From a bacterium (lineage in GTDB: Bacteria; Hinthialibacterota; Hinthialibacteria; Hinthialibacterales; Hinthialibacteraceae), in NCBI GenBank assembly GCA_016125385.1, contig WGLV01000021.1, positions 31,429-95,428 on the forward strand: 64,000 bases of DNA, read 5' to 3'. Positions 28,827 through 58,265 of this stretch are shown here, in pieces. A model generated the notes under the pieces. The model was not told the origin of the DNA. It saw only the letters and a list, made by a program, of their open reading frames with translations, and did no database searches. The position numbers were made by a program, and so were the translations under genes. The stretch's first letter is position 1, and every line of letters starts with the position of its first letter.

Positions 28827-28857
28827 GCAGGGGGCGGGTTTCAAACCCGCCCCCTGC
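28827..28857. repeat. Hairpin-A palindrome (GCAGGGGGCGGGTTT-c-AAACCCGCCCCCTGC)
   Basis: Perfect 15-bp inverted repeat upstream of cobA. It belongs to the dispersed family that also occurs at 29165, 33737, 35743, 36172 and 58085. Confidence 0.8.
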
Positions 28858-28949
28858 GATCTGACGACTCTCATTTACCTGTCGAATCCGTGTTCCCCGT
28901 GTTTCTCATTCGCCAAAATTCAAAGGCGGTTCTCAATCACTGACCCGTC

Positions 28950-29345
28950 AGTGACCAGCGGGAGCGTTATACGCATACAGCCCAAAGACTCGCCACGGCC
29001 GCTGGCCGCGGCCAACGCGAGCGGTTTTGATTCTCCCACCGAATATCGGGGGGATTTAGAGGGGGGGGGGGGTGAGCGCACGATTGAAAGAGCCGCGCAT
29101 CCCGACAACCCCCTCCTTCGCCTCCCCCATCTTGGGGGAGGAAAACGACGTTCGATCACGCCTCAGGGGGCGGGTTTGAAACCCGCCCCTACGGCCGACC
29201 GTTTCTGATTTATCAATCGGTTATGTGTTTCCAGCGTTCCTGGTAAACCAAAAATCCGAAACCGTTTCTGCATCAGATCGCCTTAGCAACCAACGGGCGC
29301 GCTATACGCGTACAGCCCAAATACCGGGCAGCCGACACTGTCGGC
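28950..29345. repeat. Composite multi-hairpin intergenic repeat element (inverted orientation relative to the 35.4-36.2 kb copies)
   Basis: It contains a diverged R-unit at 28955..29020, a G/C homopolymer, and the GACAACCCCCTCCTTCGCCTC block. It also contains hairpin B at 29121..29141 (CCTCCCCCA-tct-TGGGGGAGG), hairpin A at 29165..29190, and an R-unit plus hairpin C at 29291..29345 (GCCGACA-c-TGTCGGC). Confidence 0.75.
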
Positions 29346-29352
29346 AGACCGC

Positions 29353-30672
29353 CTAGAGGCGCCAGGGGCGGCGGTAATCACGCGTAACCAGCTTATTGGC
29401 GCGGTAGTTGCCGATCACCTTTTCTTTTTCATCATCCCAATGCAGGGTTTCACCGACGCGGTAGGCGATGTTCGATAACAGCCCCGGTTTGGTCAGACGA
29501 AACGCGTACTCGGCGTTGCAGGTGGTGAGTTCACGCGATTTGATGCTGTTGAGAAACTCGCGGATATGGCCCGGCGAGTTGGGGATGGACTCGGGCGGAC
29601 GCTCGAAGTCTTTCGCTTCCTTGCCATCGACGAAGATTTTGTTCTGACCATAGTTCGTCACCAGAGTCGCGTCGCGGCCCTGGAAGACACAGCCGATGGA
29701 GCCGAATTCCTCGTAGCCGGGTAACCCATTGGGGTGAAGGTCCCAAGTCAGGGTCAGATCGGGGAAACGCATCAGCACATCCAACTGGTCGGGCGTCTCC
29801 GCGTTGTCGTCATTAAAGAAGCGGCCCCCCACCGCGCTGACAGTCTCAGGGCCGCCCAGATCGAGCGCCCAGAAGGCCACATCGGTAATATGGCACCAGA
29901 AGTCCATGAAATCGCCGCCGGAGTAGTCCCAGAAATAGCGGAAATTGAAGTGAGAACGGTTGGGGTTGTACGGGCGCTTTGGCGCTGGGCCCTGCCAGAA
30001 ATCGTAGTCGAGTTCCGCGGGCGGATCACAATCGGCGGGATGATCGAGGTTCTGGATATTGGCTCTTTTCCACAAGGCGACCTTGGTGATCTTACCGAGT
30101 TTACCCGATCGGACGACTTCAACCACACGCCGGTAATTATTGAGATCGTTATGGATGTGGTTGCCCATCTGGGTGATTCGCTTGTTGCGCTTTACCGCTT
30201 CGACCATGGCGCGCCCCTCGTTAATGGAGTGGCACATGGGTTTTTCGAAGAAGACGTCCTTACCGGCGTCGCAGGCGGTAACGGTGGGCAGGCAGTGCCA
30301 GTGGTCGGGCGTGGTGACCACTACCGCGTCGACGTCGTTGCGATCGATCAGTTTGCGGAAGTCGTGATAGGAATCGGGTTTATAGCCATTGCGCTTTTCG
30401 ACTTCGGCAACGGCGGCGGCGGCGTGACTTTCATCGACGTCGCAGATACCCACGCAATGCACGTCATCGTTCGCAATAAAGCTCTTGAGGCGGTTGGTAC
30501 CCATGCCGCCCACGCCAATGTGGCCCACGCGGATGGTATCACTGGGCGCGTTGGCCGCGAGGGCGCGGTAATTGGCCGCCGTCAGGCCCAGAGCGAGCCC
30601 GGCGCCGCCGCGCAGAAAGTTACGCCGGTTGACCGGCGTGGATTGATTTGATGATTTTTGTTCGGTCGCCAT
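29353..30672 (-). CDS. Gfo/Idh/MocA-family oxidoreductase with a twin-arginine (TAT) signal peptide
   Basis: An N-terminal RRNFLRGGAGLALGLTAANYRALA is followed by a Rossmann motif IRVGHIGVGGMG. Confidence 0.8.
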   Translation of the reverse strand: MATEQKSSNQSTPVNRRNFLRGGAGLALGLTAANYRALAANAPSDTIRVGHIGVGGMGTNRLKSFIANDDVHCVGICDVDESHAAAAVAEVEKRNGYKPDSYHDFRKLIDRNDVDAVVVTTPDHWHCLPTVTACDAGKDVFFEKPMCHSINEGRAMVEAVKRNKRITQMGNHIHNDLNNYRRVVEVVRSGKLGKITKVALWKRANIQNLDHPADCDPPAELDYDFWQGPAPKRPYNPNRSHFNFRYFWDYSGGDFMDFWCHITDVAFWALDLGGPETVSAVGGRFFNDDNAETPDQLDVLMRFPDLTLTWDLHPNGLPGYEEFGSIGCVFQGRDATLVTNYGQNKIFVDGKEAKDFERPPESIPNSPGHIREFLNSIKSRELTTCNAEYAFRLTKPGLLSNIAYRVGETLHWDDEKEKVIGNYRANKLVTRDYRRPWRL

Positions 30673-30900
30673 TTTTTAGCCTCCGCAAGTAAATGCCGGT
30701 CCATTGTAGCGAAATCATCCAGACGCGACTACTCTAAAAAGAGATTTTTTTTATCCATCCTTAAAAAAGCGAATCGATTCACCGATTCCTGCGGACCTGG
30801 CGAAAACTGTCAGGGAGATGCATTATCTCGCTTACTTTTTGAAAAAAAATAGCGTACTATTAAGGGTATCGAATGAATGACGTGAAGGAGCTCAGTTTTC

Positions 30901-31248
30901 ATGGATCGTGCTTTGGGACTCATTGAAACACGCGGCCTGATCGCCGGCATCGAAGCCAGCGACGCCGCAGTGAAAGCCGCCGAATCGGTCATCTCTCAAC
31001 TGGAATACAACGTTCCGGGTATGGTTACGGTGAAGTTGCGCGGCGGCGTGGCCGACGTGCAAGCCGCCGTCGAAGCGGGCGCATCGGCCGCGCGCCGGGT
31101 GGGAGAAGTAATTTCGGCGCACGTGATTCCCCGGCCGCATGAAGACGTGGAAGCCCTGATCGCGCATGAGCCCGAAAGCACCATGACCGGGCCTGATGTT
31201 TTGATGAAGCGAACCGGGGAGAAGAAAGACGGCAAGTCGAAGAAGTAA
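30901..31248 (+). CDS. Bacterial microcompartment shell protein, BMC-H (PduA/EutM-like) with a basic C-terminal tail
   Basis: ALGLIETRGLIAGIEASDAAVKAA......VTVKLRGGVADVQAAVEAGASAARRVGEVISAHVIPRPHEDVE is a canonical BMC-H (PF00936) sequence. A GAAGGAG ribosome-binding site is present. The C-terminal KRTGEKKDGKSKK tail is extra. Confidence 0.8.
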   Translation: MDRALGLIETRGLIAGIEASDAAVKAAESVISQLEYNVPGMVTVKLRGGVADVQAAVEAGASAARRVGEVISAHVIPRPHEDVEALIAHEPESTMTGPDVLMKRTGEKKDGKSKK

Positions 31249-31425
31249 ATTTTTCCTGCTCTTTTTTCTCTGCTGAACTGATTTTTTGTTATCTCATTGC
31301 AAGCGCCTCATCCAACTGGGGGATGGATGCGCCTGTTTCCGGAATGTTTGTATTGGCGGTTTCCGCCTGAATCATTTATGGGGTCGTACTCTGGTTTGAT
31401 TTTTTTCCTACAGGGAGGCAGTTTC

Positions 31426-32046
31426 ATGAAAAGGGAAGGTTTTACACTGATTGAATTGCTCATCGTCGTCGCCATTATCGGAATTCTGGCGGCCATCGCC
31501 GTGCCCAACTTTCTGAACGCTCAGATGAGGGCCAAGGTCGCCCGCGTGGTGTCGGACATGAAGGCGGTGGCGATGGGTGAAGAGCAGTATCGACTCGACC
31601 GCAACCAGTATACCTACGATGGCGATTGCGGCGTCGGCCAGGCCGAACACCTGTCGTATGTTCCGCTTACCACCCCCGTCGCGTATCTAAGCAGTTTCCC
31701 CGAAGACGCATTCGCCGGAATCGATCCGAAGTTTCAGAACCGTCAGACGATCAAAACCGGGTTGAAACCCGTGTACGAATACACCTCGCGTGTATCGTTT
31801 GGCCCGCAGGGCACGCCAAACTGCAAAAACAATACGACCACTTATAGCACTCTGGGCCGGATCGGCGTCGAATATCTCATGACCTCACTGGGTCCGGACG
31901 GCGATCAGGATTTCCCCTGGGGCGCGAACGATTACGTGATTCTTCGTGAGCGAAACGCCGGATTCATCTATCAGCCTTCAAACGGGCTTGTTTCAAACGG
32001 CAACATCTTCGTATTGAACAGCCAGATCATCGGCGGCAATAATTAA
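31426..32046 (+). CDS. Prepilin-type N-terminal cleavage/methylation domain protein (DUF1559-like pseudopilin)
   Basis: The internal ATG at 31426 has a GGGAGG ribosome-binding site. GFTLIELLIVVAIIGILAAIAVPNF is the class III signal peptide motif, in which G|FTLIE is the cleavage/methylation site. Confidence 0.7.
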   Translation: MKREGFTLIELLIVVAIIGILAAIAVPNFLNAQMRAKVARVVSDMKAVAMGEEQYRLDRNQYTYDGDCGVGQAEHLSYVPLTTPVAYLSSFPEDAFAGIDPKFQNRQTIKTGLKPVYEYTSRVSFGPQGTPNCKNNTTTYSTLGRIGVEYLMTSLGPDGDQDFPWGANDYVILRERNAGFIYQPSNGLVSNGNIFVLNSQIIGGNN

Positions 32047-32083
32047 GCGAATTATTCGCCGCGATTATCAATCAGCCTTTGCG

Positions 32084-32115
32084 ACGGGACGGTGAATACC
32101 GTCCCGTTTTTGTTT
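32084..32115. terminator. Rho-independent terminator after the pseudopilin gene
   Basis: ACGGGACGGT-gaat-ACCGTCCCGT is a 10-bp perfect stem followed by TTTTTGTTT. Confidence 0.65.
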
Positions 32116-32212
32116 ACCTCGCCGCGCGTAATGTGTTCCTTCACAGAGACGAACGCGGTTTGGTATCGTTGTACAAAGAAGCAAACCAGATGAAATACGA
32201 GGAGACGGTATC

Positions 32213-33721
32213 GTGAGTCTGCTTGGCATCGACGTGGGAACCACCGGCTGTAAAGCCGTCGCATTCAACGAAGAAGGTAACATTCTGGCCTCGGCGTACC
32301 GGGAGTATCCCCTGCACGCCCCCAACCCGGGCTGGGCCGAACTCGACAGCAACCAGGTCTGGCGCGACGTCAAATCGTGTCTGGGCGAGATCGTGGCGAA
32401 AACGGCGGCGGACCCGGTGAAAGCGCTGGCGGTCTCCTGTCAGGGCGAGGCGGTGACGCTCACCGCCGAAGACGGTTCGTTTCTCTCGAACTCGATCGTC
32501 AGTTTCGACACGCGAACCGAACCGTACATCCGGCAGTGGGAGGAACGCTTCGGCCGCGAGCGCATCTTCGGGGTCACCGGCCAGCCGCTGGCCTCGATCT
32601 TCACCGGGCTGAAATTGCAGTGGTATCGCGAAAATCAACCCGATGTGTTGAAGAAAACACGCTGGGTTTTGGGTTATGAAGACCTGATCAATTACAAACT
32701 GACCGGCGAGGCGGTGACCGATTATTCGCTGGCGGGCCGCACCATGCTCTTCGACGTAACCCGGCAGGACTGGGACGATGAGTTTCTCGGCTTCGCCGGG
32801 GTCTCGCGCGAGGTTATGCCCCGGCTGGCGCCCTCGGGAACGCTGGCGGGGACGATCGACGCGCTGGTGGCGGCCGAGATCGGTCTGCCGCAGGGCGTAC
32901 AGGTCGTCACCGGCGCACACGACCAGCCCTGCCAGACCCTGGGCGCGGGCGTCACGGAAGCGGGCGTCGCGGCCTACGGCGTGGGGACGGTGGAATGCGT
33001 GTGCGCGGCGTTCGGCGAGGCGCTGCTCAACGACGCCATGCTGTCGAATAATATATGCTGCTATCACCACGCCTGCCCCGAACACTACATCGCGCTGGTT
33101 TACAACTACACCGGGGCGGTTCTGTTCCGCTGGTACCGCGACCAGATGGCGAAGGACGAACTGCGCCGCGCCAACGAGAGCGAGCGCGACGTGTACGACC
33201 TGTTGACCAGTGAAGCCGCCGCCAAACCCACGCGGTTGCTGGTTTTGCCTCATTTCACCACCACCGGCGTGCCTCATTTCGATAACCGCAGCAAGGGCGC
33301 GATTCTCGGCCTGACGCTCGACACCACCAAAGCCGAACTGACGCGCGCCATTCTCGAAGGCGGAACGTATGAGATTCGTCAGGGAATGGAGCTGTTGAAG
33401 AACGCGGGCGGCGCGGTTGAAACCTACCGCGTCACCGGCGGCGGCGCCAAGTCGGATTACTGGATGCAGATCAAAGCCGATATTCTCGGCGCTCCGGTCG
33501 AGGTTCCCGCCGTACCGGAAGCGGGTTGTCTGGGCGCGGCGATTCTGGCGGGCGCGGCGACCGGATCGTATTCATCGATCCGCGAAGCGGCGCATCAGCT
33601 GGCGCGCACCGAAAAAACCTTCGAGCCCGATCCGGAAAACCAGAGGATCTACGACGAGCGCTTCGAGTGGTATAAAGAGATTTATCCGCGCAACAAAGAC
33701 CTGTTCCACAAGATGACCTGA
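32213..33721 (+). CDS. FGGY-family carbohydrate kinase (xylulokinase-like)
   Basis: The N-terminal LLGIDVGTTGCKAV sequence is an actin-fold phosphate-1 motif. The length of 502 aa and the C-terminal GGGAKS motif fit the family. Confidence 0.75.
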   Translation: MSLLGIDVGTTGCKAVAFNEEGNILASAYREYPLHAPNPGWAELDSNQVWRDVKSCLGEIVAKTAADPVKALAVSCQGEAVTLTAEDGSFLSNSIVSFDTRTEPYIRQWEERFGRERIFGVTGQPLASIFTGLKLQWYRENQPDVLKKTRWVLGYEDLINYKLTGEAVTDYSLAGRTMLFDVTRQDWDDEFLGFAGVSREVMPRLAPSGTLAGTIDALVAAEIGLPQGVQVVTGAHDQPCQTLGAGVTEAGVAAYGVGTVECVCAAFGEALLNDAMLSNNICCYHHACPEHYIALVYNYTGAVLFRWYRDQMAKDELRRANESERDVYDLLTSEAAAKPTRLLVLPHFTTTGVPHFDNRSKGAILGLTLDTTKAELTRAILEGGTYEIRQGMELLKNAGGAVETYRVTGGGAKSDYWMQIKADILGAPVEVPAVPEAGCLGAAILAGAATGSYSSIREAAHQLARTEKTFEPDPENQRIYDERFEWYKEIYPRNKDLFHKMT

Positions 33722-33736
33722 CAGCAAGCGATCGCA

Positions 33737-33774
33737 CGGGGGCGGGTTTCAAACCCGCCCCCGCGGCTTTTTTG
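33737..33774. terminator. Hairpin-A copy acting as an intrinsic terminator for the kinase gene
   Basis: CGGGGGCGGGTTT-c-AAACCCGCCCCCG has a 13-bp stem. It is followed by TTTTTTT. It starts 16 nt after the stop codon. Confidence 0.75.
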
Positions 33775-33897
33775 AAGTGGGGATTGAAGGCGCGAATAAC
33801 CGGCCCCCGAATTCTGAAAAAAAACTGAATATCTTGCTGAACCTCGCCGTAGTATGATTGATCCATCCATCCTGAACCGCTAGAAAGCGATACCGCC

Positions 33898-35436
33898 ATG
33901 ACGACTCGCCGGATCGACGCGGGCCTGATGATTCTGATCGGGCTGGCGGCGCTGAAACTCGCCCTGCACCTCTACGTCAACATCGCTCTCCCCGAACCGT
34001 ATGGAATTTTCCGCGACGAGCTGTATTACATCGCCTGCTCGGAGCGGCTCGACTTCGGCTACGTCGATCATCCGCCCTTGTGCGCGGTGACGCTGGCGGC
34101 GTCGCGCACCGTGCTGGGCGATTCGCTGCCCGCGCTCCGATTTTTACCGGGGCTGTTCGGCGCGGGGGTTGTCGTGCTGGCCGGGCTGCTGGCGCGCGAA
34201 CTGGGCGGCGGGACGCGGGCGATGGCGCTGGCGGGCGCCGCCGCGCTGGCGATGCCGGTGGCGATGGCGGTGGACAATTTTTATTCGATGAACGCGTTCG
34301 ATCATCTGGCGTGGATGACGGCGGCGTACCTGCTCGCGCGGCTCATCAGGCGCCCCTCCCTCGGTTTGTGGATCGCGCTGGGAGCCGCACTGGGGCTGGG
34401 GCTGCAAAACAAGATCAGCGTGCTGTTTTTCGGCTTCGGGCTGACGGCGGGTCTGGCGCTGACGCCGCTGCGCAAGTGGTTTGCCGACTGGCGGCTCTAT
34501 CTGGCGGGCGCGATCGCTCTGGCGATTTTCACGCCGCACATCGTCTGGCAGATCGCGCATGGCTGGCCCACGCTGGAGTTCATCCACAACGCGAAGACTT
34601 ACAAAAACCTGCCCATGACGCCGGCGGCGTTTTTCATACAAACCTCACTGGAAGCAAACCCGGTCTCACTGCCGCTGTGGCTGATGGGTCTCTGGTTTTT
34701 TATGTTCAGCCGCGCGGGGCGCGATTTTCGCGTATTCGGCTGGATCTTCGTCATTGTGACCGGCGTGTTTCTGATGCAGAACGCCAAGACGTATTACCTC
34801 GCGCCCGCCATGCCGATTCTGATGTCGGGAGGCGCGGTTTGGCTGGAGAGCGTATGCGCCACGCGATGGGCGCGCGCGATTCCACCCGGTTACGCCGCGT
34901 TGACGCTGATCTGCGGCGCGCTTCTGGCTCCGCTGGCGCTGCCCATCCTGCCGCCGCAAGCCTTTCTGGCGTACGCGAAAGCGGCCGGCGTGCAATCTCA
35001 ACCCGGCGAGCGCGGCGACTTCGGCGAGCTGCCGCAGGTATTCGCCGACATGATCGGATGGAAGCAAATGGCCGAAGAACTCGGCAAGGCGTATCAATCG
35101 CTCTCCCCCGAAGAACGCGAGCGCTGCGCGATCGTGCTCGATAACTATGGCCAGGCGGGCGCGGTGGAGTTTTACGGCAAACCTTACGGACTGCCCACCC
35201 CCATCTGCGGGCATAACAATTATTACTTCTGGGCGCCAGAGAATCCACCGTGGGACATCATTATCACGCTGGGAGCGCGCGAGGACGCTGAGGGAAAGGT
35301 TGAATCGATCGAGGAGGCGGGTGTTTTCACCATCCGCTATTCACGCGAGTTTCACAATCCATGCCCGGTGCTGATCCTGCGCGATCCAAAAATAACCTAT
35401 CAGGAAGCGCTGCAAGGTCTGAAACATTTCATCTAG
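33898..35436 (+). CDS. GT39/GT83 (ArnT / PMT-like) membrane glycosyltransferase
   Basis: It is a polytopic membrane protein of 512 aa. An early periplasmic loop carries DELYYIACSERLDFGYVDHPPL, the DE-like motif of ArnT/PMT-type enzymes. Confidence 0.65.
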   Translation: MTTRRIDAGLMILIGLAALKLALHLYVNIALPEPYGIFRDELYYIACSERLDFGYVDHPPLCAVTLAASRTVLGDSLPALRFLPGLFGAGVVVLAGLLARELGGGTRAMALAGAAALAMPVAMAVDNFYSMNAFDHLAWMTAAYLLARLIRRPSLGLWIALGAALGLGLQNKISVLFFGFGLTAGLALTPLRKWFADWRLYLAGAIALAIFTPHIVWQIAHGWPTLEFIHNAKTYKNLPMTPAAFFIQTSLEANPVSLPLWLMGLWFFMFSRAGRDFRVFGWIFVIVTGVFLMQNAKTYYLAPAMPILMSGGAVWLESVCATRWARAIPPGYAALTLICGALLAPLALPILPPQAFLAYAKAAGVQSQPGERGDFGELPQVFADMIGWKQMAEELGKAYQSLSPEERERCAIVLDNYGQAGAVEFYGKPYGLPTPICGHNNYYFWAPENPPWDIIITLGAREDAEGKVESIEEAGVFTIRYSREFHNPCPVLILRDPKITYQEALQGLKHFI

Positions 35437-35439
35437 CGG

Positions 35440-36200
35440 GCGGCGCCCGCGGCCAGTCTTTTGGGCTGTGCGCGCTTACCGCTCCCGTTGGTCGCAGGCG
35501 GACAGTGTCCGCTGCCGGGTCTTTGGGTCGTGCGTGTTTTGCGCGCCCGTTGGTTGCTGACGTATGCGTGATCGATATCCGTCTTCGGAATTTTGGGGAA
35601 TGAGAGACGTGGAGAATTTTTGAGCGTTTGATTTACGAGATGTGTCATGTTGCAGAGGCACGCCGCTCGCGCCGGTTTGCTTTTTTCGTGTCATTCATTC
35701 ATTTCGTGTTTTCGTGATTCTAAAAGAAACCATTCGGTTGCAGGGGGCAGGTTTGAAACCTGCCTCTACGGTGGGTGCGATCGAGCGAGCTTTCCTCCCC
35801 CAAAGTTTGGGGGAGGCGAAGGAGGGGGTTGTCCGATAAATCGCAAAGTTTGTTCGAGGCGCTCACCCCCCCTCTAACTCCCCCCGATCTTCGTGGGGAG
35901 AATTTTTCAACGCTCCCGTTGGTCGCTGGCCGACAGTGTCGGCGGCCGAGTCTTTGGGGCGGTGCGTGTTAAACGCGCCCGCTGGTTGCTGACGTATGCG
36001 TGATCGATATCCGTCTTCGGAATTTTGGGGAATGAGAGACGTGGAGAATTTTTGAGCGTTTGATTCACGAGACACGGCGGGTTGTAGGGGCATGTTGCAA
36101 CGCGCCCGTTTGCTTTTTTCGTGTCATTCATTTCGTGTTTTCGTGATTCTAAATGAAACCATTCGGTTGCAGGGGGCGGATTTGAAATCCGCCCTTGCGA
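35440..36200. repeat. Tandem duplication (about 430-bp period, two copies) of a structured repeat element with a 100-nt invariant core, bounded by hairpin A copies
   Basis: Copy 1 spans about 35481..35767 and copy 2 about 35911..36194. The segment gctgacgtatgcgtgatcgatatccgtcttcggaattttggggaatgagagacgtggagaatttttgagcgtttgatt is identical in both, apart from one change further on. Hairpins C and A differ between copies by compensatory substitutions. Hairpin B and the GAGGCGAAGGAGGGGGTTGTC block lie between the copies. Confidence 0.8.
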
Positions 36201-36253
36201 CGAGATTGAGCGGCGATTTTTTCCAAAATCAGGGTAGTTAAACCGCCAGCACG

Positions 36254-37996
36254 CTATTTTCCATCGCCCCAGTGTTGAATGAGGATGAGCAGGTCTTTCG
36301 CGTCGACGACGCCGTCGCCGTTGAGGTCGGGATCGCCCGCGACAGGCGTGGGCCGCATCGGCGTGGGAGTGACTTGAGGCGTGGGCGTGACCGTCGGGTC
36401 GGGAGGAAACAGAAACGGCGTCGCGGTGGGCGCGGGCGCGCCCGGCGTGGCGGTGGGCAGCGGCTGAAGCAGCGACGCCGTTACGATGACGTTATTCTTA
36501 GAATCGATCACCACCAACCCGACGCGGCCATCGCTGAAAAAACGCCCCGGCGCGGCGAAGACAGGGTTCTCGACGCTGAAGACGGTTTGCGTCCGCCCGC
36601 CGGTGGGGCCATCGGTGCGCTGAAAGGCGCGCACGCCGCCCGCCGCGGGAAAGACGAAATCGCTGAGGCCGTCGGCGTTGAGGTCGTATGCACGTAGAGG
36701 AAAGCCCACCGATCCCGCCGGCAGCCGCGCTTCATCGGTCGAGACGCTTCCATCGTCTTCGAGGCGGACGCGGCTGAAATACAGCGTGGGGTCGACCTCG
36801 CCGGTGGGAGAGAACGCGGCCAGCTCAACCCGAGCCGGGTCGATGGGGCGCGCGGCGAAGGCGCGTTGCAGCGTTGGATCGGTCAGCGTCAGTTTGATCG
36901 CGTTTAAGAAGTTGAGATCGGGGCTGCTGAACAGAATGTACGGATCGACGTTGGATGACGTACCGCCGCGCGAGCGGGTAATGAACAACTCGTCGCGGCC
37001 GTCACCGTCGAGATCGCCCTTCGCGAGGAAACGCCGCCCAAGGCCGATCAGGTCGCCCTCCAGCTTGAAGGTTCCATCGCCGACGCCGGTGAAGATTTTG
37101 GGGATGCCGCCCACGATCAGATCGAGCGCGCCGTCATCATTCACGTCAACCAGCGTAAGCGCGTCGAGCGCGGTGGTCAGCGATACGTCGGCCTGAAAGC
37201 CGGACGCGAAACCGCCCGCGTCATTGGCAAGAAACACGGTCAGGTGAACGGACGCCGACCCGGAGGCCTGCGACGCCGCCACGAAGTCAACCAGGTCATC
37301 ACCGTTGACGTCGCCCGTCGCGACCCGCGAGGGCGCGTCGATCTGCATGTTCAGCGGGATCGAGATCAGGCCCGAGCCGGACGAAGTGAAGAGGTCGACG
37401 CGGTTAGAGGCTTTGTAGAGCAGAAACAGGTCGTCGAGCCCGTCGCCGTTCATGTCGGCGGTTTCGACCCCCGTAACCGCCGCGCCCACGGTAAAGCGGC
37501 TTTGCTCGGCGAACAGCTCGGCGGGCAATGGAACCGGCGTGGGCGGCGGCGTCTGAAACGCCGAGGCGGGTTTTACCTTTAATCCCCAGCCGATCAATGT
37601 GCCGGTCGCGCCCTCGACGAGGTCGAGCACGCGCAGTTTCCATTCGCCCATCGGGCTTCGATTGAGAAAACGCGAGAGCGGTTCGGCGGGGGCGTCGAGC
37701 GTATCGTAAACGGGGTGAAAGGGCGCGTCATCGGACGGAGTCCGGTTGTGCAGAATAATGCTCTCGCCGCCGGGATGAACCAGCGAGACGATCAGCTGTT
37801 CAACGGCGGGGTGATCGATCTCGAACGAGACTTGCAGTTCTTCGAGCGGTTCGCCGCCGGGGACGTAAATCGAATACGCCGCGCCCGTGACGGCGTCGTT
37901 ATCGGGAATGGGCAGATCGGCGCGCACTTCGGCGACGGCGTACGGCGTTTCGGCGGTCTGGGCGCGCGCGAGCATGGGCGCCGCGAGGCAGACCAT
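36254..37996 (-). CDS. Secreted FG-GAP/VCBS-repeat protein with a Pro/Thr linker and a C-terminal dockerin-like module
   Basis: There are repeated DxNGDGxxD motifs (DMNGDGLDD, DVNGDDLVD, DLDGDGRDE, DLNADGLSD). A PT-rich linker is followed by DLNGDGVVDAKDLLILIQHWG at the C-terminus. The start is assigned to the ATG at 37996, just after the uvrB stop. The upstream part of the ORF track overlaps uvrB and is not believed. Confidence 0.6.
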   Translation of the reverse strand: MVCLAAPMLARAQTAETPYAVAEVRADLPIPDNDAVTGAAYSIYVPGGEPLEELQVSFEIDHPAVEQLIVSLVHPGGESIILHNRTPSDDAPFHPVYDTLDAPAEPLSRFLNRSPMGEWKLRVLDLVEGATGTLIGWGLKVKPASAFQTPPPTPVPLPAELFAEQSRFTVGAAVTGVETADMNGDGLDDLFLLYKASNRVDLFTSSGSGLISIPLNMQIDAPSRVATGDVNGDDLVDFVAASQASGSASVHLTVFLANDAGGFASGFQADVSLTTALDALTLVDVNDDGALDLIVGGIPKIFTGVGDGTFKLEGDLIGLGRRFLAKGDLDGDGRDELFITRSRGGTSSNVDPYILFSSPDLNFLNAIKLTLTDPTLQRAFAARPIDPARVELAAFSPTGEVDPTLYFSRVRLEDDGSVSTDEARLPAGSVGFPLRAYDLNADGLSDFVFPAAGGVRAFQRTDGPTGGRTQTVFSVENPVFAAPGRFFSDGRVGLVVIDSKNNVIVTASLLQPLPTATPGAPAPTATPFLFPPDPTVTPTPQVTPTPMRPTPVAGDPDLNGDGVVDAKDLLILIQHWGDGK

Positions 37997-38024
37997 CAGC
38001 GCCAGGGCGAGGACAGCCCAGCGG

Positions 38025-40142: not shown

Positions 40143-40239
40143 GGTTACCCGCGTAAAAATTATTCGTTTGAATTGGTAATACGAACACGCGCGCCGCGTT
40201 ATTCATAGTGTATCGCCGTTTGATCACAACACCAACGCG

Positions 40240-44228: not shown

Positions 44229-45104
44229 ATGCGACCGTTGACTGCGGCAAAGATTTATAACCTCTTTTCCGAAACTGCTGTTTTCATGTCATGTGAAGAC
44301 AACTTGTCATTCATGCGTCCTTTACCCTGCGAGAGCATGAAGTTGATCGTGACATCTCCACCTTACAACATCGGGAAAAAATACGAAAAGAATTCTCCTC
44401 TCGATCAATACATCGATCAGCAAACAAGAGTAATTGATGAATGCGTCCGATTGCTTCACCCGAATGGTTCGATATGCTGGCAGATCGGTAATCACGTTCA
44501 GAAGGGCGAAATAATTCCGCTCGACGTGATTCTGTACCCAATTTTCAAAAGGCATGGTTTGCACCTTCGCAACCGTATAGTCTGGCACTTTGAACATGGA
44601 CTTCATTGTTCAAAGCGCTTGTCAGGCAGATATGAAACCATTTTGTGGTTTACAAAAAACGACGAGTACACGTTTAACCTTGATCCCATTCGAATTCCCG
44701 CCAAGTATCCTCAAAAAAAGTATTTCAAAGGTCCGAAACGAGGACAGTTATCGGGGCATCCGGACGGCAAAAATCCTGGCGATGTATGGGTGATTCCCAA
44801 CGTGAAAAACAATCACGTTGAAAAAACAATTCACCCGTGTCAGTTCCCCGTCGAATTAATTGAACGTCTAGTTTTAGCGCTAACCGAGCCAGGTGATGTC
44901 GTTTTTGATCCATATATGGGTGTTGGATCAAGTATAATCGCCGCCGCAAAGCATGACAGAATCGGTTATGGATGCGACACCGTTAAGGAATACGTTAAAA
45001 TCGCTTGGGAACGAGTTAATCAGCTTCAGGCAGGAACATTACGAACGCGCCCCATGGGGAAACCGGTATACGATCCTACGAAACCAAACGGCGGGCATTC
45101 ATGA
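44229..45104 (+). CDS. Site-specific DNA methyltransferase (beta-class N4-cytosine or N6-adenine; SPPY motif)
   Basis: The catalytic motif IV is VTSPPYN. The SAM motif I, DPYMGVGSS, lies near the C-terminus, which is the beta-class order. A GAGGAG ribosome-binding site is present. The GC content is markedly lower (about 45%) than the surroundings. Confidence 0.8.
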   Translation: MRPLTAAKIYNLFSETAVFMSCEDNLSFMRPLPCESMKLIVTSPPYNIGKKYEKNSPLDQYIDQQTRVIDECVRLLHPNGSICWQIGNHVQKGEIIPLDVILYPIFKRHGLHLRNRIVWHFEHGLHCSKRLSGRYETILWFTKNDEYTFNLDPIRIPAKYPQKKYFKGPKRGQLSGHPDGKNPGDVWVIPNVKNNHVEKTIHPCQFPVELIERLVLALTEPGDVVFDPYMGVGSSIIAAAKHDRIGYGCDTVKEYVKIAWERVNQLQAGTLRTRPMGKPVYDPTKPNGGHS

Positions 45105-45712
45105 AAATCGTTGAATTCTATTCACACCTGAACGGACATGAATACATTCTCGTTCATAAGCCCTCTCTATGGAATGAAATTGAATCCATCATCTATGGAA
45201 TCAATGCGGAAGAATGCAAAACGAAAATTTCCAAAGAAAAACGAATGATTGGGAAAACTTTGTATTCTCCGAAAGACATGAATAAAAAAATGCAATCTGG
45301 ATTTCAAAAAAAGCACTGGGAAGAAAAACGAATTTCGTACTGGGTAACCAGAGACGCGCAATTGATCAGGAAAACCCTTCACCTGTCCGCCGCCGAGCAA
45401 AAACAGGAGATCGAAGAGGCAGGCCAGGAAGCGATCTATTCGTACAACCAGACGGATTTCGTCAAAGACCGAATCGCGGTCGAAGTTCAATTCGGCAAAT
45501 ACGCATTTGTGGCGTTCGATCTATTCGTCAAGCATCTCGCGTTTTACGTCGGCGACATGATCGACGTGGGCGTCGAGATTCTCCCCATGAAATCGCTTCA
45601 ATCGCAAATGTCATCCGGCGTAGCGTATTATGAAGGCGAGTTGTACAACCTGATCCGAGAAGGACGCGGCGTACCCGCTGTTCCGCTGGTACTCATCGGC
45701 ATCGCTCCATGA
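45101..45712 (+). CDS. Putative type II restriction endonuclease partner (BglII/BstYI-like?)
   Basis: Its start is translationally coupled to the MTase stop by an ATGA overlap. It has the same low GC. DRIAVEVQ is a possible PD-(D/E)xK-type D...E-x-Q active site like that of BglII. The family call is tentative. Confidence 0.35.
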   Translation: MKIVEFYSHLNGHEYILVHKPSLWNEIESIIYGINAEECKTKISKEKRMIGKTLYSPKDMNKKMQSGFQKKHWEEKRISYWVTRDAQLIRKTLHLSAAEQKQEIEEAGQEAIYSYNQTDFVKDRIAVEVQFGKYAFVAFDLFVKHLAFYVGDMIDVGVEILPMKSLQSQMSSGVAYYEGELYNLIREGRGVPAVPLVLIGIAP

Positions 45713-46401: not shown

Positions 46402-46407
46402 CCGCGC

Positions 46408-46908: not shown

Positions 46909-47068
46909 ATTCAGGGCTCCTTCCGCAGACACAGCCAGTCATATCTTGATATCAACCCATCGCCTGTAAACAGGCGCGGAGCCTCGGCATCTCGATTTTG
47001 CTTGAGATTTTTACACAAAAAGATTATGCTGGCTGCCTGTAAAAAACCAGCTTGCGAGGGGGGACGTC

Positions 47069-47935: not shown

Positions 47936-47973
47936 TTGGACTCATCGCATCCCCGGTCAGCGGGCCGCACCGA

Positions 47974-49395
47974 TCAGGCGGAGCCTTCGTAGCGTTTTTT
48001 GACGTCGCGATAGTTGATGTCGTATGAATAGATCGCGCCGTAGGCTTCGCGCGCGCCGGCCTTGTCGCCGCTTTCTTCGCGGGCGAGGCCGAGGTAGTAA
48101 TAGGCTTCTTTCAACTCGGGCGTGGGGACGTGAGAGTACCCTTTATTCTTGAAGAATTCCAGCGATTTTTCATACTGCTGAATCGCCAGCGGCAGGTCGC
48201 GCCGCGCGCGAAAACATTGCCCCAGCAGAAAGAATCCCTTGCCCGCCCATGACGGCTCGTGAATCAGGCGCTGAAGGGCGGTGATCGCCTCGTCGAGACG
48301 GCCATGTTTCAGCAACAGCTCGCCCAGTTCGGCGCGTTCGAGGTGGCGTTCGGGGTGCATGCGCATGACGCCCTCCAACACCTCGATGCGCGTTTTTTCA
48401 CGCTCGACCTTGAGCGTTTCGAGGCGGCGGAACTGTTCGGGCGTCAGTTTTCCGCTGTTTTTCAATTCGTTCATGTGGGCGATTTCGGCTTCGAGATACT
48501 CGTCGCGCAGGCCGGCGTCTTCCGGGTGAACGCGGACGAGGTCTTTGTAGAGCCCGAGGCAGATTTCCAGATCGCCGGTTCGCCGCCAGAGGCGCGCCTG
48601 TTCACGCTGAGCCGGTTCGAAGTGAGGATTTTTATCGAGAATGAGCCCCAACACTTTTTCGGCCTGTTTGAGGTGGCCGCCGCTTATGTAATGAGCGGCG
48701 ACGTCAACGCCGATGCCGTGGTTATCAGGCGAGGCCTTATACGCGGCCAGCATCTTGTCGAGTTTTTCCATAAACTCTTCGTTATCGAGCGCGTCCAGCT
48801 TTTCTTTTTCCATCGCGCGGCGCCGGGCCTTGAGATCTTCAGGCACGCCGACGCGGGCGTAGGCCAGAGCGGCGACATCGCGCAGGCGGTGCTCGATTTT
48901 GTCATCGCCGGGGCGCAACGCATGCAACCGTTGCAGCATCTCGGCTGCGCGCTCATGCTCGCCGAGTTGAACCAGCGTTTCAGCGCAGGCGCGCAGAGCG
49001 GGTTGATGAGTGGGTTTGAGTTTCAGCACGGCCTGGTACAGCTCACAGGCCTCTTCGGCATGATTGAGTTTTTCAGCGCATCGCGCGAGGGCGAACGCCG
49101 CCCCCGCGTGATCGGGTTTTACCCGGTGGATGAACTTGAACGATTTATACGCCGGCTCGGTCCGGCCGGCCAGCAGGGCGAGGGTTCCCGAAAGGTATTT
49201 GAGCCACCAGCCAACCGGCGTGCTTTTACGGCGCGCGCGTTCGACCTCGATGCTTTCCAGACCGTCGAGCGCTTCTTCATTGGATGGAAACTGAGCCAGA
49301 ACCTGGTGAAAATAGCGGTCGGCGAGTTCAAACTCGCCGTCTTTCACCGCCTGGCGTCCCCGGTTGATATAAGCCGCCACATCGATCGATGCCAA
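47974..49395 (-). CDS. Tetratricopeptide-repeat protein
   Basis: It has multiple TPR-like A/L/Y-rich 34-aa helical repeats, for example AEEACELYQAVLKLKP and YYYLGLAREESGDKAGAREAY. Confidence 0.7.
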   Translation of the reverse strand: MASIDVAAYINRGRQAVKDGEFELADRYFHQVLAQFPSNEEALDGLESIEVERARRKSTPVGWWLKYLSGTLALLAGRTEPAYKSFKFIHRVKPDHAGAAFALARCAEKLNHAEEACELYQAVLKLKPTHQPALRACAETLVQLGEHERAAEMLQRLHALRPGDDKIEHRLRDVAALAYARVGVPEDLKARRRAMEKEKLDALDNEEFMEKLDKMLAAYKASPDNHGIGVDVAAHYISGGHLKQAEKVLGLILDKNPHFEPAQREQARLWRRTGDLEICLGLYKDLVRVHPEDAGLRDEYLEAEIAHMNELKNSGKLTPEQFRRLETLKVEREKTRIEVLEGVMRMHPERHLERAELGELLLKHGRLDEAITALQRLIHEPSWAGKGFFLLGQCFRARRDLPLAIQQYEKSLEFFKNKGYSHVPTPELKEAYYYLGLAREESGDKAGAREAYGAIYSYDINYRDVKKRYEGSA

Positions 49396-49503
49396 AGCCC
49401 GGTCTCCCCTCCAGATGGCGTGTTTTCACCCTATAACAAGTAGTCTGAACCGCGCCCGGCGTCAATCCGCGGCGGCGATTTCAGCCGGGCGGGCGGAACG
49501 CAT

Positions 49504-54936: not shown

Positions 54937-55147
54937 TGTTTCGCTTCCAGTCTCCCCTGATTGGTCTTGATTGAGGATTTCAACGTTCTTATTCCGGCGT
55001 GGAACGCCGCGGCGCGTTGAAAACCGCTGGTTGCAGGGTATCAAATCGATTCAAAGATCCGCGAGAGGCCTTCTCCTCCCACAACTGACGTCGCCCTCCC
55101 TTTCGTGAATTCACCGGAGATCGCGGCCCGGTCAGGCATCGTCCCGG

Positions 55148-56221
55148 TCAGGAACAAACGCAATCCGGTTCGCGTTGCATCGCGATGGGTAAAAGCCCTT
55201 CCGTTTCAGGGAATCCCATGCGGACGTTCATATTCTGCACCGCCTGCCCCGCCGCGCCCTTCACCAGATTGTCTTCCGCCGAAGCGAAGATCACCTCGCC
55301 AGTGACGGCGTCTTGATGCAGCGAAATATCGACGAAATTGGAGCCGCGCACGGCATGCAGAGTCGGCGTCTCACCCAAGGGGTATAAACGAACGAACGGC
55401 TCGCCCCGATACGCCTCGTCATATAGCGCCCACAGGTCTTTCAGCGATATCTCTTTCGCTTTCGCCGCGAAGATCGTGTAAAAAATTCCACGCTGCAAGG
55501 GCAGCAGGTGAGGCACGAACGATAGCGAAACCGGTTTTTCGACCGCACGGCGCAGTACGCTGACGATCTCGGGCAGGTGTTGATGTTTGCCGATGCGGTA
55601 CGCGTAAAAATTCTGATCGAGCTCGGGATGATGTAGATTCTGTTTGGGTTTTTTGCCCGCGCCGGTCACGCCTGAAGCCGCGCTGATATGGACGCCCTCG
55701 TGTTTAAGCGCGCCCGATTTGAGCCCCGGATAGAGACTCAGAATCGCGCCAGTAGGGTAACAGCCGGGGTTGGCGATCAGATTCGCGCCTCGCACCTTGC
55801 CGCGAAACAGCTCGGGCAAGCCATACACCGCCTCGGCGCACAACCCGGGCGCGGTGTGTTCGCCTTCATACCAGCCCGTGCGCTCGGCGGGGTCGTTAAA
55901 GCGGAAATCGGCGGAAAGATCGATGGTCACGCATCCGGTTTGATGATACGCCGGGACGATCTCCATCGCCGCTCCATGCGGCGTGCAGACGAACACCACC
56001 TCGGCGCCGCCTTCACCGGGGACCTCTTTCGTCACCGGAACGGGAACCATCCCCCGCAACGCCGGCCAGAAGGTGTGTATCGGCTCGGGGCCGGTCACGC
56101 TCGACGCCGTGATGGCGGTGATTTCAACACGGGGATGATTGAGCAGCAGCGAAATCAGTTCGCCGCCGGAATACCCGGTGGCGCCCACGATTTTGACCTT
56201 GCATCTGGATGCGGCGTTCAT
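55148..56221 (-). CDS. argC: N-acetyl-gamma-glutamyl-phosphate reductase
   Basis: The NAD-binding N-terminus is VKIVGATGYSGGELISLL. A catalytic Cys region is present. The ATG at 56221 is preferred, and the GTG at 56245 is also possible. Confidence 0.85.
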   Translation of the reverse strand: MNAASRCKVKIVGATGYSGGELISLLLNHPRVEITAITASSVTGPEPIHTFWPALRGMVPVPVTKEVPGEGGAEVVFVCTPHGAAMEIVPAYHQTGCVTIDLSADFRFNDPAERTGWYEGEHTAPGLCAEAVYGLPELFRGKVRGANLIANPGCYPTGAILSLYPGLKSGALKHEGVHISAASGVTGAGKKPKQNLHHPELDQNFYAYRIGKHQHLPEIVSVLRRAVEKPVSLSFVPHLLPLQRGIFYTIFAAKAKEISLKDLWALYDEAYRGEPFVRLYPLGETPTLHAVRGSNFVDISLHQDAVTGEVIFASAEDNLVKGAAGQAVQNMNVRMGFPETEGLLPIAMQREPDCVCS

Positions 56222-56471
56222 ATTCGTCGTCTCGTCGTCTTTCACAGAATCACGCGGCTCAGTATACCGAAGCGGATTCAGGCTGTCAAAATTCGCCGGG
56301 GCATGCGGCGGCCGGTGATTCTCTCATTGTCCCCTCAAGAAGCGGAATCGCCAAGCGTTGATGAAGGGGGCTTACCGGAAGAGTGGATTTGCGTCACGCG
56401 CGCGCCTCTGATATCCTCAATGATTCAATGGACCTATTTCGATCCAACCTATCTTCAGGAGAACCGGTATC

Positions 56472-57017
56472 ATGAAACGACTCGCCCTGCTCAGCGCCTT
56501 TCTGATGGTATTCACCACTCTCGCCAAGGCGGCTCCCGATGAATTTTCCAGCAAGACCGTCCTGATCGGCATGATCGTGAGCGACATGGACGCCTCGGTC
56601 AAATTTTATAAGGACGTGGTCGGCTTTACGGAATATGAAGGTTTTTCGGTCGACGCCGATTTTGGCGAACGCTCGGGCCTGACCGATTCGCTGCCGTTGA
56701 CGGTGCGCGTGTTTAAACTCGGGCCCGGCGCCGATGCGACTCAATTGAAACTGATTGAATTTAAAGAAAAAGCCCAGAAGCAGCAAAACGATTTCATCCA
56801 CAGCCATACCGGCGTTCAGTATCTCACCATCCGCGTGACTGAATTGCAGCCGATTCTGGACCGGATCAAGAAGAACAACGTCAAAATGCTGGGCAAAACG
56901 CCGATTGAACTCTCAGGCCGCGATATGTTCGTCTTGATCAAAGACCCCGACGGTACATTCGTTGAGCTGATCGGCCCGTTGACCGCGAAAAAACGGTTTG
57001 ATTCGGTGTTTAAATAG
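56472..57017 (+). CDS. Secreted VOC (glyoxalase/bleomycin-resistance fold) family protein
   Basis: It has a signal peptide. Paired beta-alpha-beta-beta-beta modules are present (LIGMIVSDMDASVKFYKDVVGF and VQYLTIRVTELQPILDRIKK). Confidence 0.55.
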   Translation: MKRLALLSAFLMVFTTLAKAAPDEFSSKTVLIGMIVSDMDASVKFYKDVVGFTEYEGFSVDADFGERSGLTDSLPLTVRVFKLGPGADATQLKLIEFKEKAQKQQNDFIHSHTGVQYLTIRVTELQPILDRIKKNNVKMLGKTPIELSGRDMFVLIKDPDGTFVELIGPLTAKKRFDSVFK

Positions 57018-58020
57018 ACCGTTCCACCGCGCCGAGGCCGGGCCGGTTGGGAAGCGTCAGCCGGCCCGCCTCCATGCGCATTCCCTCGAAGGGGTCATCG
57101 CTCAACAAGGCGGCGCCGTCGAGATCGGCGTAATCAGCCAGCGGAGCCAGTTGGGCGGCGGCTGAAATCGCCAGCGAACTCTCCAGCATACACCCCAGCA
57201 GAACTTTCAACCCGCACGCCCGGGCGCGCTCGATGCAGCGGCGTCCCGGCCCCAGCCCCCCGCATTTGGCCAGTTTGACATTGATTCCATCAGCGCGGCC
57301 CGCCCAGCGCTCGACATCTTCAGGCCCCTGTACCCCTTCGTCCACGAAAAGTGGGATTCCGGTGCGATTGGCTTCGAACAGCCGCGCATATCCATCGAGA
57401 TCGGCGCGCGGCAACGGCTGTTCAAGCAACTCGACGCCCAGGCGCTTGAGTTCGGGCAGGCGGGCAATGGTTTCGTCGAGCGTCCACCCCTCGTTGGCGT
57501 CGATGTAGATCGACTGACTCGATCTCTCACGGATCGCTTCGAGTATCGCCACGTCGTCCACGCCGCCGAGTTTGACTTTAATGATGGGGTATTCGTTAAC
57601 CCGCTCGATTTTTTGCAGCATGACATCCAGAGAATCGAGGCCGATGGTGAACGATGAAAGCGGTACGGCGGTGGAATCGAGCCCCCAGAGTTCATGCAGC
57701 GGCTTTTTTTCGCGCTTGCCCCATGCGTCGTACAGAGCCAGGTCGACCGCCTCAGCCAGCGCGGTTTCGCCCGGATGACGCGCGAGCACCAGGCTCGCCG
57801 CTTCGGCTGGATCGGCGGCGGCGAGGTCCGGCGGCAGCGCACGCGCCAGAGCCAGCATGTCTTCGGCGTTCTGCCCCTTGTAATAGATGGGCGCGCCTTC
57901 GCCAAGGCCTTCTCCACAGCGGATGAACAGATTGCTTACCGCGCGGCGCGTTCCGCGCGACAGCCCGAAGGGGTCGCGGGTGTGGAGTTCACGCAATGTA
58001 CATTCAAACGAAAACGTCAT
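57010..58020 (-). CDS. Enolase-superfamily enzyme, dipeptide (L-Ala-D/L-Glu) epimerase-like
   Basis: It has KVKLGG, DANEGW and C-terminal acid residues with MR/MLE family spacing. Confidence 0.7.
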   Translation of the reverse strand: MTFSFECTLRELHTRDPFGLSRGTRRAVSNLFIRCGEGLGEGAPIYYKGQNAEDMLALARALPPDLAAADPAEAASLVLARHPGETALAEAVDLALYDAWGKREKKPLHELWGLDSTAVPLSSFTIGLDSLDVMLQKIERVNEYPIIKVKLGGVDDVAILEAIRERSSQSIYIDANEGWTLDETIARLPELKRLGVELLEQPLPRADLDGYARLFEANRTGIPLFVDEGVQGPEDVERWAGRADGINVKLAKCGGLGPGRRCIERARACGLKVLLGCMLESSLAISAAAQLAPLADYADLDGAALLSDDPFEGMRMEAGRLTLPNRPGLGAVERSI

Positions 58021-58084
58021 GAGGGGATTCCCTGATTGGATAGGGATGTTTTTTCAGACCGATCAGAATCAGAAAAGGCGTTTA

Positions 58085-58265
58085 ACAGCAGGGGCGGGTA
58101 TAAACCCGCCCCTGTTAATCTTTGAACTTCCCCCGTTTTGGGGGAGGAAACCCCTTTTGATCCCGCCTGCGTCGGCGACCAACGGGAGCGCTTGATGCGT
58201 ACAACCCAAAACCGGGCGGCGGGCACTGCCCGCCCAACGGGCGCGCTTGAAGCGCACAACCTGAA
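58085..58265. repeat. Another copy of the composite multi-hairpin repeat (hairpin A, hairpin B, then an R-unit with a hairpin C variant)
   Basis: Hairpin A, with an ataa loop, lies at about 58091..58112. Hairpin B (TTCCCCCG-ttt-TGGGGGAG) lies at 58127..58147. An R-unit (caacgggagcgcttgatgcgtacaacccaaaaccgggc) lies at 58180..58215. The hairpin C variant GGCGGGCA-c-TGCCCGCC lies at 58218..58234. It sits downstream of the transketolase gene. Confidence 0.75.

Follow-up and report, generated by a model that had tools for sequence, protein, structure and literature searches.

Four intergenic repeat arrays near Candidatus Hinthialibacter as probable BIME-like clusters around a double-foot REP

The repeats analysed here lie in a 64,000-nt stretch of contig WGLV01000021.1 (assembly GCA_016125385.1, positions 31,429 to 95,428), in the following called the window, from a bacterium of the Hinthialibacteraceae. 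The closest systems described so far are the repetitive extragenic palindromes (REPs) with their REP-associated tyrosine transposases (RAYTs). Among the transposases, TnpA_REP subclass 2.4, which equals RAYT group 4 (groups of Bertels et al. 2017), is accompanied by long REPs whose stem base consists of three G-C pairs and which have two feet, 5' GT[AG]G and 3' C[TC]AC ("double-foot" REPs). These REPs are inserted in frame within tnpA_REP, between HuH and Y, the distribution of the subclass across phyla is patchy, and REPs of the type GTAGGGGCGGG...CCCGCCCCTAC are listed for it in the supplement (Quentin et al. 2018; PMC6006769). GTAG REPs are described from eight phyla, with sub-families that differ by complementary stem residues; their sites are unidirectional and convergent gaps, at under 20 bp from the 3' end of an ORF, their ends can supply stop codons, some families carry degenerate GYAG tags, and clusters reiterate units in tandem along with flanking DNA (Di Nocera et al. 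2013; PMC3733652). The host lineage near Candidatus Hinthialibacter was not covered by the latter survey. A mosaic organization is found in the bacterial interspersed mosaic elements (BIMEs) of E. coli, which combine REPs of types Y and Z with the motifs A, B, L, S, l and r. IHF, gyrase and Pol I are known to bind these elements. REPINs, finally, are pairs of REPs in inverted orientation that fold into a single long hairpin (Bertels and Rainey 2011).

In the window, three hairpins (A, B and C), a non-palindromic unit (R), a tract-rich module (P) and a spacer (S) recur at four loci. We consider it probable that these loci are REP clusters forming a BIME-like mosaic, with hairpin A as a double-foot REP of subclass 2.4. 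The known part is hairpin A, a double-foot GTAG REP, while the new part is the set of lineage-specific partner modules R, B, C, P and S. This reading would place a previously unrecognised repeat family of a little-studied lineage in the REP/BIME class and connect one of its modules with a particular clade of RAYTs that moves between phyla.

Hairpin A across phyla and inside RAYT genes

Hairpin A is present in six copies in the window. When the whole 64,000 nt were searched, with shuffled sequence as chance control, the pattern GGGGCGGGTTTNAAACCCGCCCC matched with up to three mismatches at 28831, 29167, 33739, 35744 and 36173 (0 matches expected from 100 shuffles), and the sixth copy is an indel variant with a different loop at 58089-58114. 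An exact search for the 23-mer core GGGGCGGGTTTSAAACCCGCCCC in 185,579 GTDB species genomes (596 Gb) recovered it unchanged in at least 120 genomes of many phyla, where by our own estimate less than one occurrence is expected by chance. The matches listed come from Chloroflexota, Proteobacteria, Omnitrophota, Nitrospirota, Acidobacteriota, Actinomycetota, Planctomycetota, Patescibacteria and others, and the 29-mer GTAGGGGCGGGTTTSAAACCCGCCCCTAC recurs among them without change in many phyla (L002-L121, GTDB genomes). The core is preceded by GTA in 86 and followed by TAC in 88 of 123 copies among these matches; a minority carries the compensated foot form GCA...TGC, and a T-rich tail follows in only 7 of the 123. 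Since a GTAG foot combined with a GC palindrome is the signature of a REP, the cross-genome hairpin A reads as a REP.

The neighbours of 120 cross-genome copies are unrelated housekeeping genes, which often end at the hairpin, and clustering of the ORFs around these copies revealed no single linked gene family. Such ordinary and unrelated neighbours argue against a tightly linked gene and fit dispersed REPs. Sister palindromes with the same feet and other inner stems occur at hairpin A loci, e.g. GTAGGGGCGAGGCATGCCTCGCCCCTAC in two phyla. An operator or parS-like protein site was considered for hairpin A and rejected because the gene context is random; a mimic of a tRNA T-arm or minihelix was rejected because the loop TTTSAAA lies off the T-loop consensus and is itself palindromic.

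The exact 23-mer of three window copies also lies within RAYT-like ORFs of a Dehalococcoidia genome (L089), a Gemmatimonadota metagenome-assembled genome (MAG; L111) and a Zixibacteria genome (L132). In the Dehalococcoidia genome (6412-6987, minus strand) the hairpin is part of a 191-aa ORF with HuH (MPNHVHGI) and Y (WQRNYYE) motifs, which matches the NCBIfam model REP_Tyr_transpos with E = 8e-20 and 71.2 bits and thus stays below the curated cut-off of 80. The Gemmatimonadota MAG (2540-3067, plus strand) encodes a homologue 55% identical to this ORF with the hairpin at the same place. At the DNA level, the Zixibacteria ORF holds two exact copies (3316-3424), and a RAYT-like ORF of an LCP-89 member (L133, ~3290-3345) holds one with a loop insertion; for these Zixibacteria and LCP-89 members the hairpin within the RAYT gene is confirmed in the DNA even for an AT-rich genome. 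Read in frame, hairpin A encodes VGAGFKPAPT. The peptide VGAG[FL]KPAPT is invariant or nearly so in 45 aligned homologues, is often duplicated and is also found in other reading frames at the ends of RAYT proteins. Homologues of these RAYTs number at least 7988 at E <= 1e-10, a lower bound because the best 8000 candidates by shared words were scored, and many of them bear the source name 'REP element-mobilizing transposase RayT'. Both GTAGGGGCGGGTTTSAAACCCGCCCCTAC and the peptide VGAGFKPAPT can be used as markers for finding REP/RAYT systems of subclass 2.4.

In line with the published REPs of subclass 2.4, hairpin A shares its core sequence with the palindrome that those RAYT genes carry in frame, the stem base is GGG/CCC, the occurrence across phyla is patchy, and the feet are GTAG/CTAC in the cross-genome copies, with CTAC also in two window copies. 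Unlike these REPs, hairpin A of the window does not keep the GTAG/CTAC pair of feet, shows a GCAG 5' foot on three copies and is embedded in a larger repeated block together with other modules, and no cognate RAYT gene was seen in the 64-kb window. A preliminary description of the window had found no known repeat class for these repeats. This no longer holds for hairpin A, a described double-foot REP that occurs across phyla and inside RAYT genes; as each seemingly unusual trait has already been published for REPs, the family can be placed. The same description had proposed selection on either RNA or single-stranded DNA. Of these routes, the one via REP and RAYT is backed for hairpin A by the RAYT-embedded palindrome and the published traits, and an RNA-level role is taken up below.

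Modules and arrays in the window

The repeat modules are confined to four intergenic gaps of the window. The features are as follows (window coordinates; a strand is given where it applies, the hairpins being self-palindromic and without orientation).

Locus 1
28827-28857: hairpin A, perfect 15-bp palindrome GCAG...CTGC, then TTGTTTTATC; last module of the locus in the sense (minus) direction
28858-28953, minus: spacer S, copy 2 of the locus, about 96-100 nt
28954-28986, minus: R unit a
28997-29013: hairpin C variant GGCCGC-TGGCC-GCGGCC
29030-29078, minus: module P (C/G runs, G12 tract, GGGGGGATTTAGAG), 89% complementary to 35866-35903
29104-29141: hairpin B, CCTCCCCCA-TCT-TGGGGGAGG at 29121-29141, with flank; 29104-29129 is 100% complementary to 35808-35833
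29164-29194: hairpin A, exact core, 3' CTAC foot
29195-29288, minus: spacer S, copy 1 of the locus
29289-29321, minus: R unit b
29331-29345: hairpin C, GCCGACA-C-TGTCGGC, 8 nt past the stop of the gene 29353-30672 (minus)
Locus 2
33737-33775, plus: solitary hairpin A, exact core, then CGGCTTTTTT; 16 nt past the stop of the FGGY kinase gene, terminator-like
Locus 3
35436-35450: hairpin C variant GCGGGC-GGC-GCCCGC, overlapping the final base of the TAG stop of the gene 33898-35436 (plus)
35460-35492, plus: R unit c
35498-35512: hairpin C, GCGGACA-G-TGTCCGC
35522-35554, plus: R unit d
35555-35740, plus: spacer S, copy 1 of the locus, 186 nt
35741-35771: hairpin A variant GGCAGGTTT/AAACCTGCC, 3' CTAC foot
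35794-35816: hairpin B, CCTCCCCCAAAGTTTGGGGGAGG
35855-35903, plus: module P (C7 run)
35906-35927, plus: R unit half copy, 3' part only
35929-35943: hairpin C, GCCGACA-G-TGTCGGC
35954-35987, plus: R unit e, 1-nt insertion
35988-36169, plus: spacer S, copy 2 of the locus
36170-36200: hairpin A variant GGCGGATTT/AAATCCGCC; last module of the locus
Locus 4
58089-58114: hairpin A indel variant CAGGGGCGGGTATAAACCCGCCCCTG
58127-58147: hairpin B variant CTTCCCCC-GTTTT-GGGGGAGG
58178-58210, minus: R unit f
58218-58234: hairpin C, GGCGGGCA-C-TGCCCGCC
58233-58265, minus: R unit g, beginning 2 nt past the stop of the transketolase gene 58268-59206 (minus)

According to the Pfam domains of the flanking genes, locus 1 separates a cobA/hemD-like gene from a GFO/IDH/MocA oxidoreductase gene, locus 2 an FGGY kinase gene from a PMT_2 gene, locus 3 the PMT_2 gene from an FG-GAP protein gene, and locus 4 an enolase-superfamily (MR_MLE) gene from the transketolase gene. 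Three of the gaps are unidirectional, one is convergent and none divergent. The placement is extragenic and near the 3' end of an ORF at all four loci, and the arrays begin 0-16 nt past the stop codon; the three composite arrays (loci 1, 3 and 4) start 0-8 nt past it, with their R units directed in the sense of the preceding gene. The statements of the preliminary description that four intergenic loci have modules in common, and that these are always intergenic, are borne out: the modules were found within a few bases of the positions given there, where shuffled sequence yields about none, and all four loci lie between ordinary chromosomal genes. Its further statement that the copies occur in both orientations is true on the plus strand, because the upstream genes of the arrays differ in orientation; relative to the upstream gene it fails, as all three composite arrays run in sense. 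This common orientation, with a chance of about 1/8, is only suggestive, and together with the strict start at the stop codon it is a small point of further interest about the arrays of hairpin C and R unit.

The stem of hairpin A is perfect in all six window copies (9-15 bp), and each keeps the GGG/CCC base of three G-C pairs. The feet are more variable. A CTAC foot, on one side only, is found at the copies at 29178 and 35755 and is missing from the other four of six; three other copies bear a 5' GCAG, which is paired with CTGC at 28842 only, and the copy at 33750 has neither foot. The copies with GCAG/CTGC feet may be relics or members of the GYAG variant.

The R unit, TTTGGGNNGTGCG(N7)CGCNCCCGTTGGT, spans 33 nt and is found in seven window copies, against none expected, plus a half copy. 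Consistent pairing is restricted to the invariant GGG/CCC and three weak inner pairs; as the unit is conserved as sequence with only invariant or weak pairs, it provides no structural evidence. Within each locus all R units are arranged head-to-tail. Pattern scans for the R unit gave 0 matches in the 185,579 species genomes or in JGI metagenomes. Hairpin C, which the preliminary description had put inside the R unit, in fact stands between R units.

Read in sense, loci 1 and 3 follow the common order stop-C-R-(C-R)-S-A-B-P-C-R-S-A, and 28821-29206 is 69% identical to the reverse complement of 35725-36119. Within locus 3 a tandem repeat with a period of 431 has copies that are 85% identical, and within locus 1 the period is 336 and the identity 69%. 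Locus 4 is a short, reshuffled array (stop, R, C, R, linker, B, A), and locus 2 a single hairpin A. Modules A, B, C, R, P and S are thus combined differently in loci 1, 3 and 4, and the former view of a single family has to be given up in favour of separable mosaic modules A, B, C and R, of which only hairpin A is found outside the lineage. A profile search (nhmmer) with the unit of hairpin C and R unit and with the 431-nt unit found no extra copies in the 64-kb window, a protein-database search with translated repeat ORFs no matches, and literature searches using the sequence strings nothing relevant. The homopolymer tract of module P, G12 at 29061-29072 in locus 1 and C7 at 35866-35872 in locus 3, is slippage-prone and variable in length. 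A conserved small ORF in the spacer was considered and rejected, as the frames differ between copies through a 4-nt indel and database matches are lacking.

In hairpin C, the six aligned copies have standard pairs in 35 of 35 cells, and two of the six pairs vary. Five double changes and no broken pair were counted, a result matched by none of 500 column shuffles. All four copies of the preliminary list were recovered, and the two variants at 35436-35450 and 28997-29013 were added. Hairpin A behaves alike, with two G:C to A:T changes (35755 and 36184), each matched on the opposite arm. Hairpins A and C therefore show compensated stem changes throughout, as had been claimed, and non-compensatory changes, which would have spoken against a structured family, are absent from the six copies of hairpin C. 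The conclusion drawn earlier, that such covariation proves selection on structure, goes too far, since self-templated correction of a palindrome gives the same pattern. Selection on the fold or quasi-palindrome correction can each account for the compensation, and six copies per hairpin cannot tell them apart. Hairpin B has three copies in the window.

The arrays share several traits with GTAG superfamily clusters such as the GTAG-23 blocks of T. roseum, namely stems of 6-13 bp with short loops, complementary sub-families, sites less than 20 bp 3' of ORFs, a stop-codon TAG abutting the repeat and flanking DNA reiterated in tandem; hairpins B and C and the R unit differ from that superfamily in having no clear GTAG or CGTC tag. 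With E. coli BIMEs they have in common the mosaic of palindromes and conserved non-palindromic motifs, the clustering in extragenic gaps at gene 3' ends and module combinations that vary by locus. They differ from these BIMEs in showing no sequence similarity and in their far longer blocks (340-430 nt, with spacers of 100-190 nt). As in REPINs, the palindromic units are short, thought to be RAYT-mobilised and grouped into sequence families within the genome, but each window hairpin is a palindrome in itself, and the R units beside the hairpins are direct repeats.

The nearest named relative of the host is Candidatus Hinthialibacter antarcticus, with 78% amino-acid identity on the transketolase. 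The orthologous gap between tkt and the MR_MLE gene contains no R, C or A modules in three relatives; it holds a canonical terminator and C-run/G-run hairpins instead. This terminator (GGGGCGC..GCGCYCCG followed by T's) occupies the site of R-C-R in the window (L122 10960-11095; L123 10960-11110), and its 3' half GCGCCCCGTTG resembles the 3' half GCGCGCCCGTTGG of the R unit. In the same gap the motif GGGGGATTAAGAG resembles module P. From these sequence likenesses, a shared ancestry of the R unit and the relatives' terminator is possible. BLAST of the four loci against ~75 kb from the three relatives gave no real homology and only the short motif GGGGGATTWAGAG. Elsewhere in the relatives, double-foot GTAG palindromes occur (L123 19548, L122 20001).

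In an independent short-read assembly of the same organism, the Logan contigs SRR10063241_29040 and SRR10063241_27682 end within the repeats, at 58220, 29292 and 35580. The repeat arrays explain assembly breaks at these gaps in the host organism, and the break at 35580 is due to the tandem repeat within the locus. No 25-mer at the breaks at 58220 and 29292 recurs elsewhere in the window, so that these two breaks hint at further repeat copies elsewhere in the genome.

Proposed mobilisation and alternative explanations

On the REP reading, hairpin A would represent a local family, in part decayed, that belongs to the double-foot GTAG REP GTAGGGGCGGGTTTSAAACCCGCCCCTAC, the cognate of the widespread Y1/HUH RAYT clade. 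We infer that it is mobilised by a RAYT in the host genome. By analogy with E. coli TnpA_REP and with IS200/IS605, the transposase would recognise and cleave the hairpins in single-stranded DNA at the replication fork, with copies then made at new sites. It would respond to fold and foot rather than to stem sequence, and stem changes would therefore survive only if compensated; alternatively, the compensation may come from the palindrome correcting itself. R, B, C, P and the spacers would be lineage-specific partners propagated with hairpin A as blocks of 340-430 nt, which would spread via tandem duplication and by the copying of entire arrays to other gene ends. Several observations weigh against the REP reading. 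No RAYT or Y1 gene was found in the 64-kb window by tblastn with two RAYT queries. Of the six copies of hairpin A in the window, only two have retained a CTAC foot, and the copies lacking it may no longer be RAYT substrates. The R unit has neither a GTAG or CGTC tag nor structural covariation, its pattern is found in no other genome or metagenome scanned, and its copies run head-to-tail, unlike the alternating units of E. coli BIMEs. G.T wobble pairs in the stems, finally, show no consistent strand preference.

The arrays follow directly on stop codons and for this reason probably belong to the transcript, as 3' untranslated regions (3' UTRs). It is doubtful, however, that they are primarily a family of structured RNAs that act in cis from the 3' UTR, as protectors of the mRNA 3' end, as attenuators or as precursors of 3'UTR-derived small RNAs, with only a secondary likeness of hairpin A to REPs. 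The start of the three composite arrays 0-8 nt past the stop in sense direction would fit such a family, as would the compensated stems, the terminator-like tails of two hairpin A copies in sense direction (28857-28827, minus; 33737-33763, plus) and G.U pairs that fall on the sense strand in some outer stem pairs of hairpin A at 35755 and 36184. The wobble pairs at hairpin A 29178 and, by reading, at hairpin B 58127 are found on the antisense strand, however, and one orientation at three loci has the chance of about 1/8 already mentioned. Moreover, folding of the composites is not clearly better than that of shuffled sequence (z from +0.5 to -2.7), and the arrays match no Rfam family: at the gathering threshold the window contains 2 tRNAs only, and at E <= 1 the region 28700-36300 gives a single weak match to tfoR (18.5 bits, where the gathering score is 70). 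The hairpins are perfect palindromes, loops included, a property not required of an RNA hairpin, and hairpin A elsewhere is mostly without T runs and also lies inside ORFs. The cis-RNA and the REP explanations are not mutually exclusive; an RNA-level role of the arrays at gene 3' ends, in termination or in protection of the 3' end, is plausible and compatible with REPs, and a terminal hairpin A with a T-rich tail is probably a terminator or 3'-end stabiliser. Annotators should in any case be warned against calling ORFs or new RNAs in these arrays.

That the arrays are ordinary intrinsic terminators, alike through local duplication and convergence of GC-rich stems, appears very unlikely. Their position 3' of genes, the two terminator-like hairpin A copies and the loose resemblance of the relatives' tkt-downstream terminator to the R unit core GCGC..GCGCGCCCGTTGG agree with it. 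A U tract directly follows only 2 of 6 copies of hairpin A and no copy of hairpin B or C, however, and canonical terminators of this genome look different (e.g. 32083-32108, then TTTGTTT). Loci 6 kb apart have a 385-nt stretch (28821-29206) in common in inverse orientation, and hairpin A keeps the same sequence from phylum to phylum, bears GTAG/CTAC feet there and, as described above, rarely has a T-rich tail. Least probable of all is that the block of about 340-460 nt is a non-autonomous transposon that resembles a miniature inverted-repeat transposable element and belongs to a conventional (DDE) insertion sequence (IS). The whole block does occur at two loci, and the hairpin A copies that flank B-P-C-R-S form 26-nt perfect inverted repeats. 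Apart from the self-palindromic hairpin A, terminal inverted repeats are lacking, however; a reading of loci 1 and 3 reveals no target-site duplication, the limits of homology are exactly the stop codon and hairpin A, and no transposase gene was found among the window ORFs examined (19 ORFs against Pfam; tblastn with two RAYT queries). The reshuffled modules of locus 4 (R-linker-B-A) speak for a mosaic and against a defined element. It seems unlikely that the array of alternating R units and C hairpins is a separate lineage-specific element instead of an accessory of the REPs; such an element would be placed or selected precisely at stop codons in sense orientation and would act as RNA or via an unknown enzyme. 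A related and likewise improbable reading is that the segment between two hairpin A copies is a passenger cassette which a RAYT moves by analogy with the use of IS200/IS605 ends.

Further settings of hairpin A and other features of the window

Several of the genomes show hairpin A in particular settings. On the plasmid AP024711.1 of Leptolinea sp. HRD-7 (L130 3700-4100), three tandem units of ~141 nt, annotated as a hypothetical protein, each consist of a hairpin A variant and another GC hairpin with CCCCTAC as its end; they form an independent composite tandem array. In the Chloroflexi MAG JACQUQ010000258.1 (L071), hairpin A occurs at 196-218 and 4285-4307, ~4 kb apart, and ~30 nt inside each copy are mutually inverted, as if the segment were bracketed by a REP and inverted-repeat ends. 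In several contigs of Lamprocystis/Chromatiaceae (L027, L061, L077, L085, L114) the ~30-nt sequence GCACCTGATATCCAGACAGACCTTCGTGTA adjoins hairpin A; it could be the end of a REP-targeting IS or part of a larger repeat that includes hairpin A. In a Patescibacteria MAG (L064 1383-1465), hairpin A forms the centre of a perfect palindrome with AT-rich arms of at least 30 nt. As a GC-rich island in AT-rich DNA, hairpin A is found on a Gloeothece plasmid (L128 4001-4030), within an annotated hypothetical ORF of 85 aa, and on a plasmid of Desulfosarcina BuS5 (L129 4001-4030), where a CTAC precedes it and its neighbours on the two sides are a PLD-like anti-phage gene and a TIR-domain gene. C-run/G-run hairpins flanked by ACCCCC..CCTAAC occur in unrelated phyla (L086 5541-5559, L110 5406-5424, L116 ~4836-4865); these hairpins (CCCTCCCCC-loop-GGGGGAGGG, CCCCTTAATCCCC) are similar to modules B and P and may represent a further palindrome type that is widely shared.

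Within the window, two adjacent ORFs at 44229-45712 (291 and 203 aa) have a GC content of 0.45-0.52 and a GC3 of 0.46-0.54, compared to 0.60 in their surroundings, and may have been acquired horizontally. The cumulative GC skew reaches its minimum at ~12-13 kb and then rises steadily; no dnaA lies at the minimum, where the ORF 12548-14047 encodes an AMP-binding enzyme, and the course of the skew may merely reflect gene orientation. Two tRNA-Ser genes with the anticodons GCT and TGA are located 80 nt apart at 8484-8571 and 8651-8740 on the minus strand.

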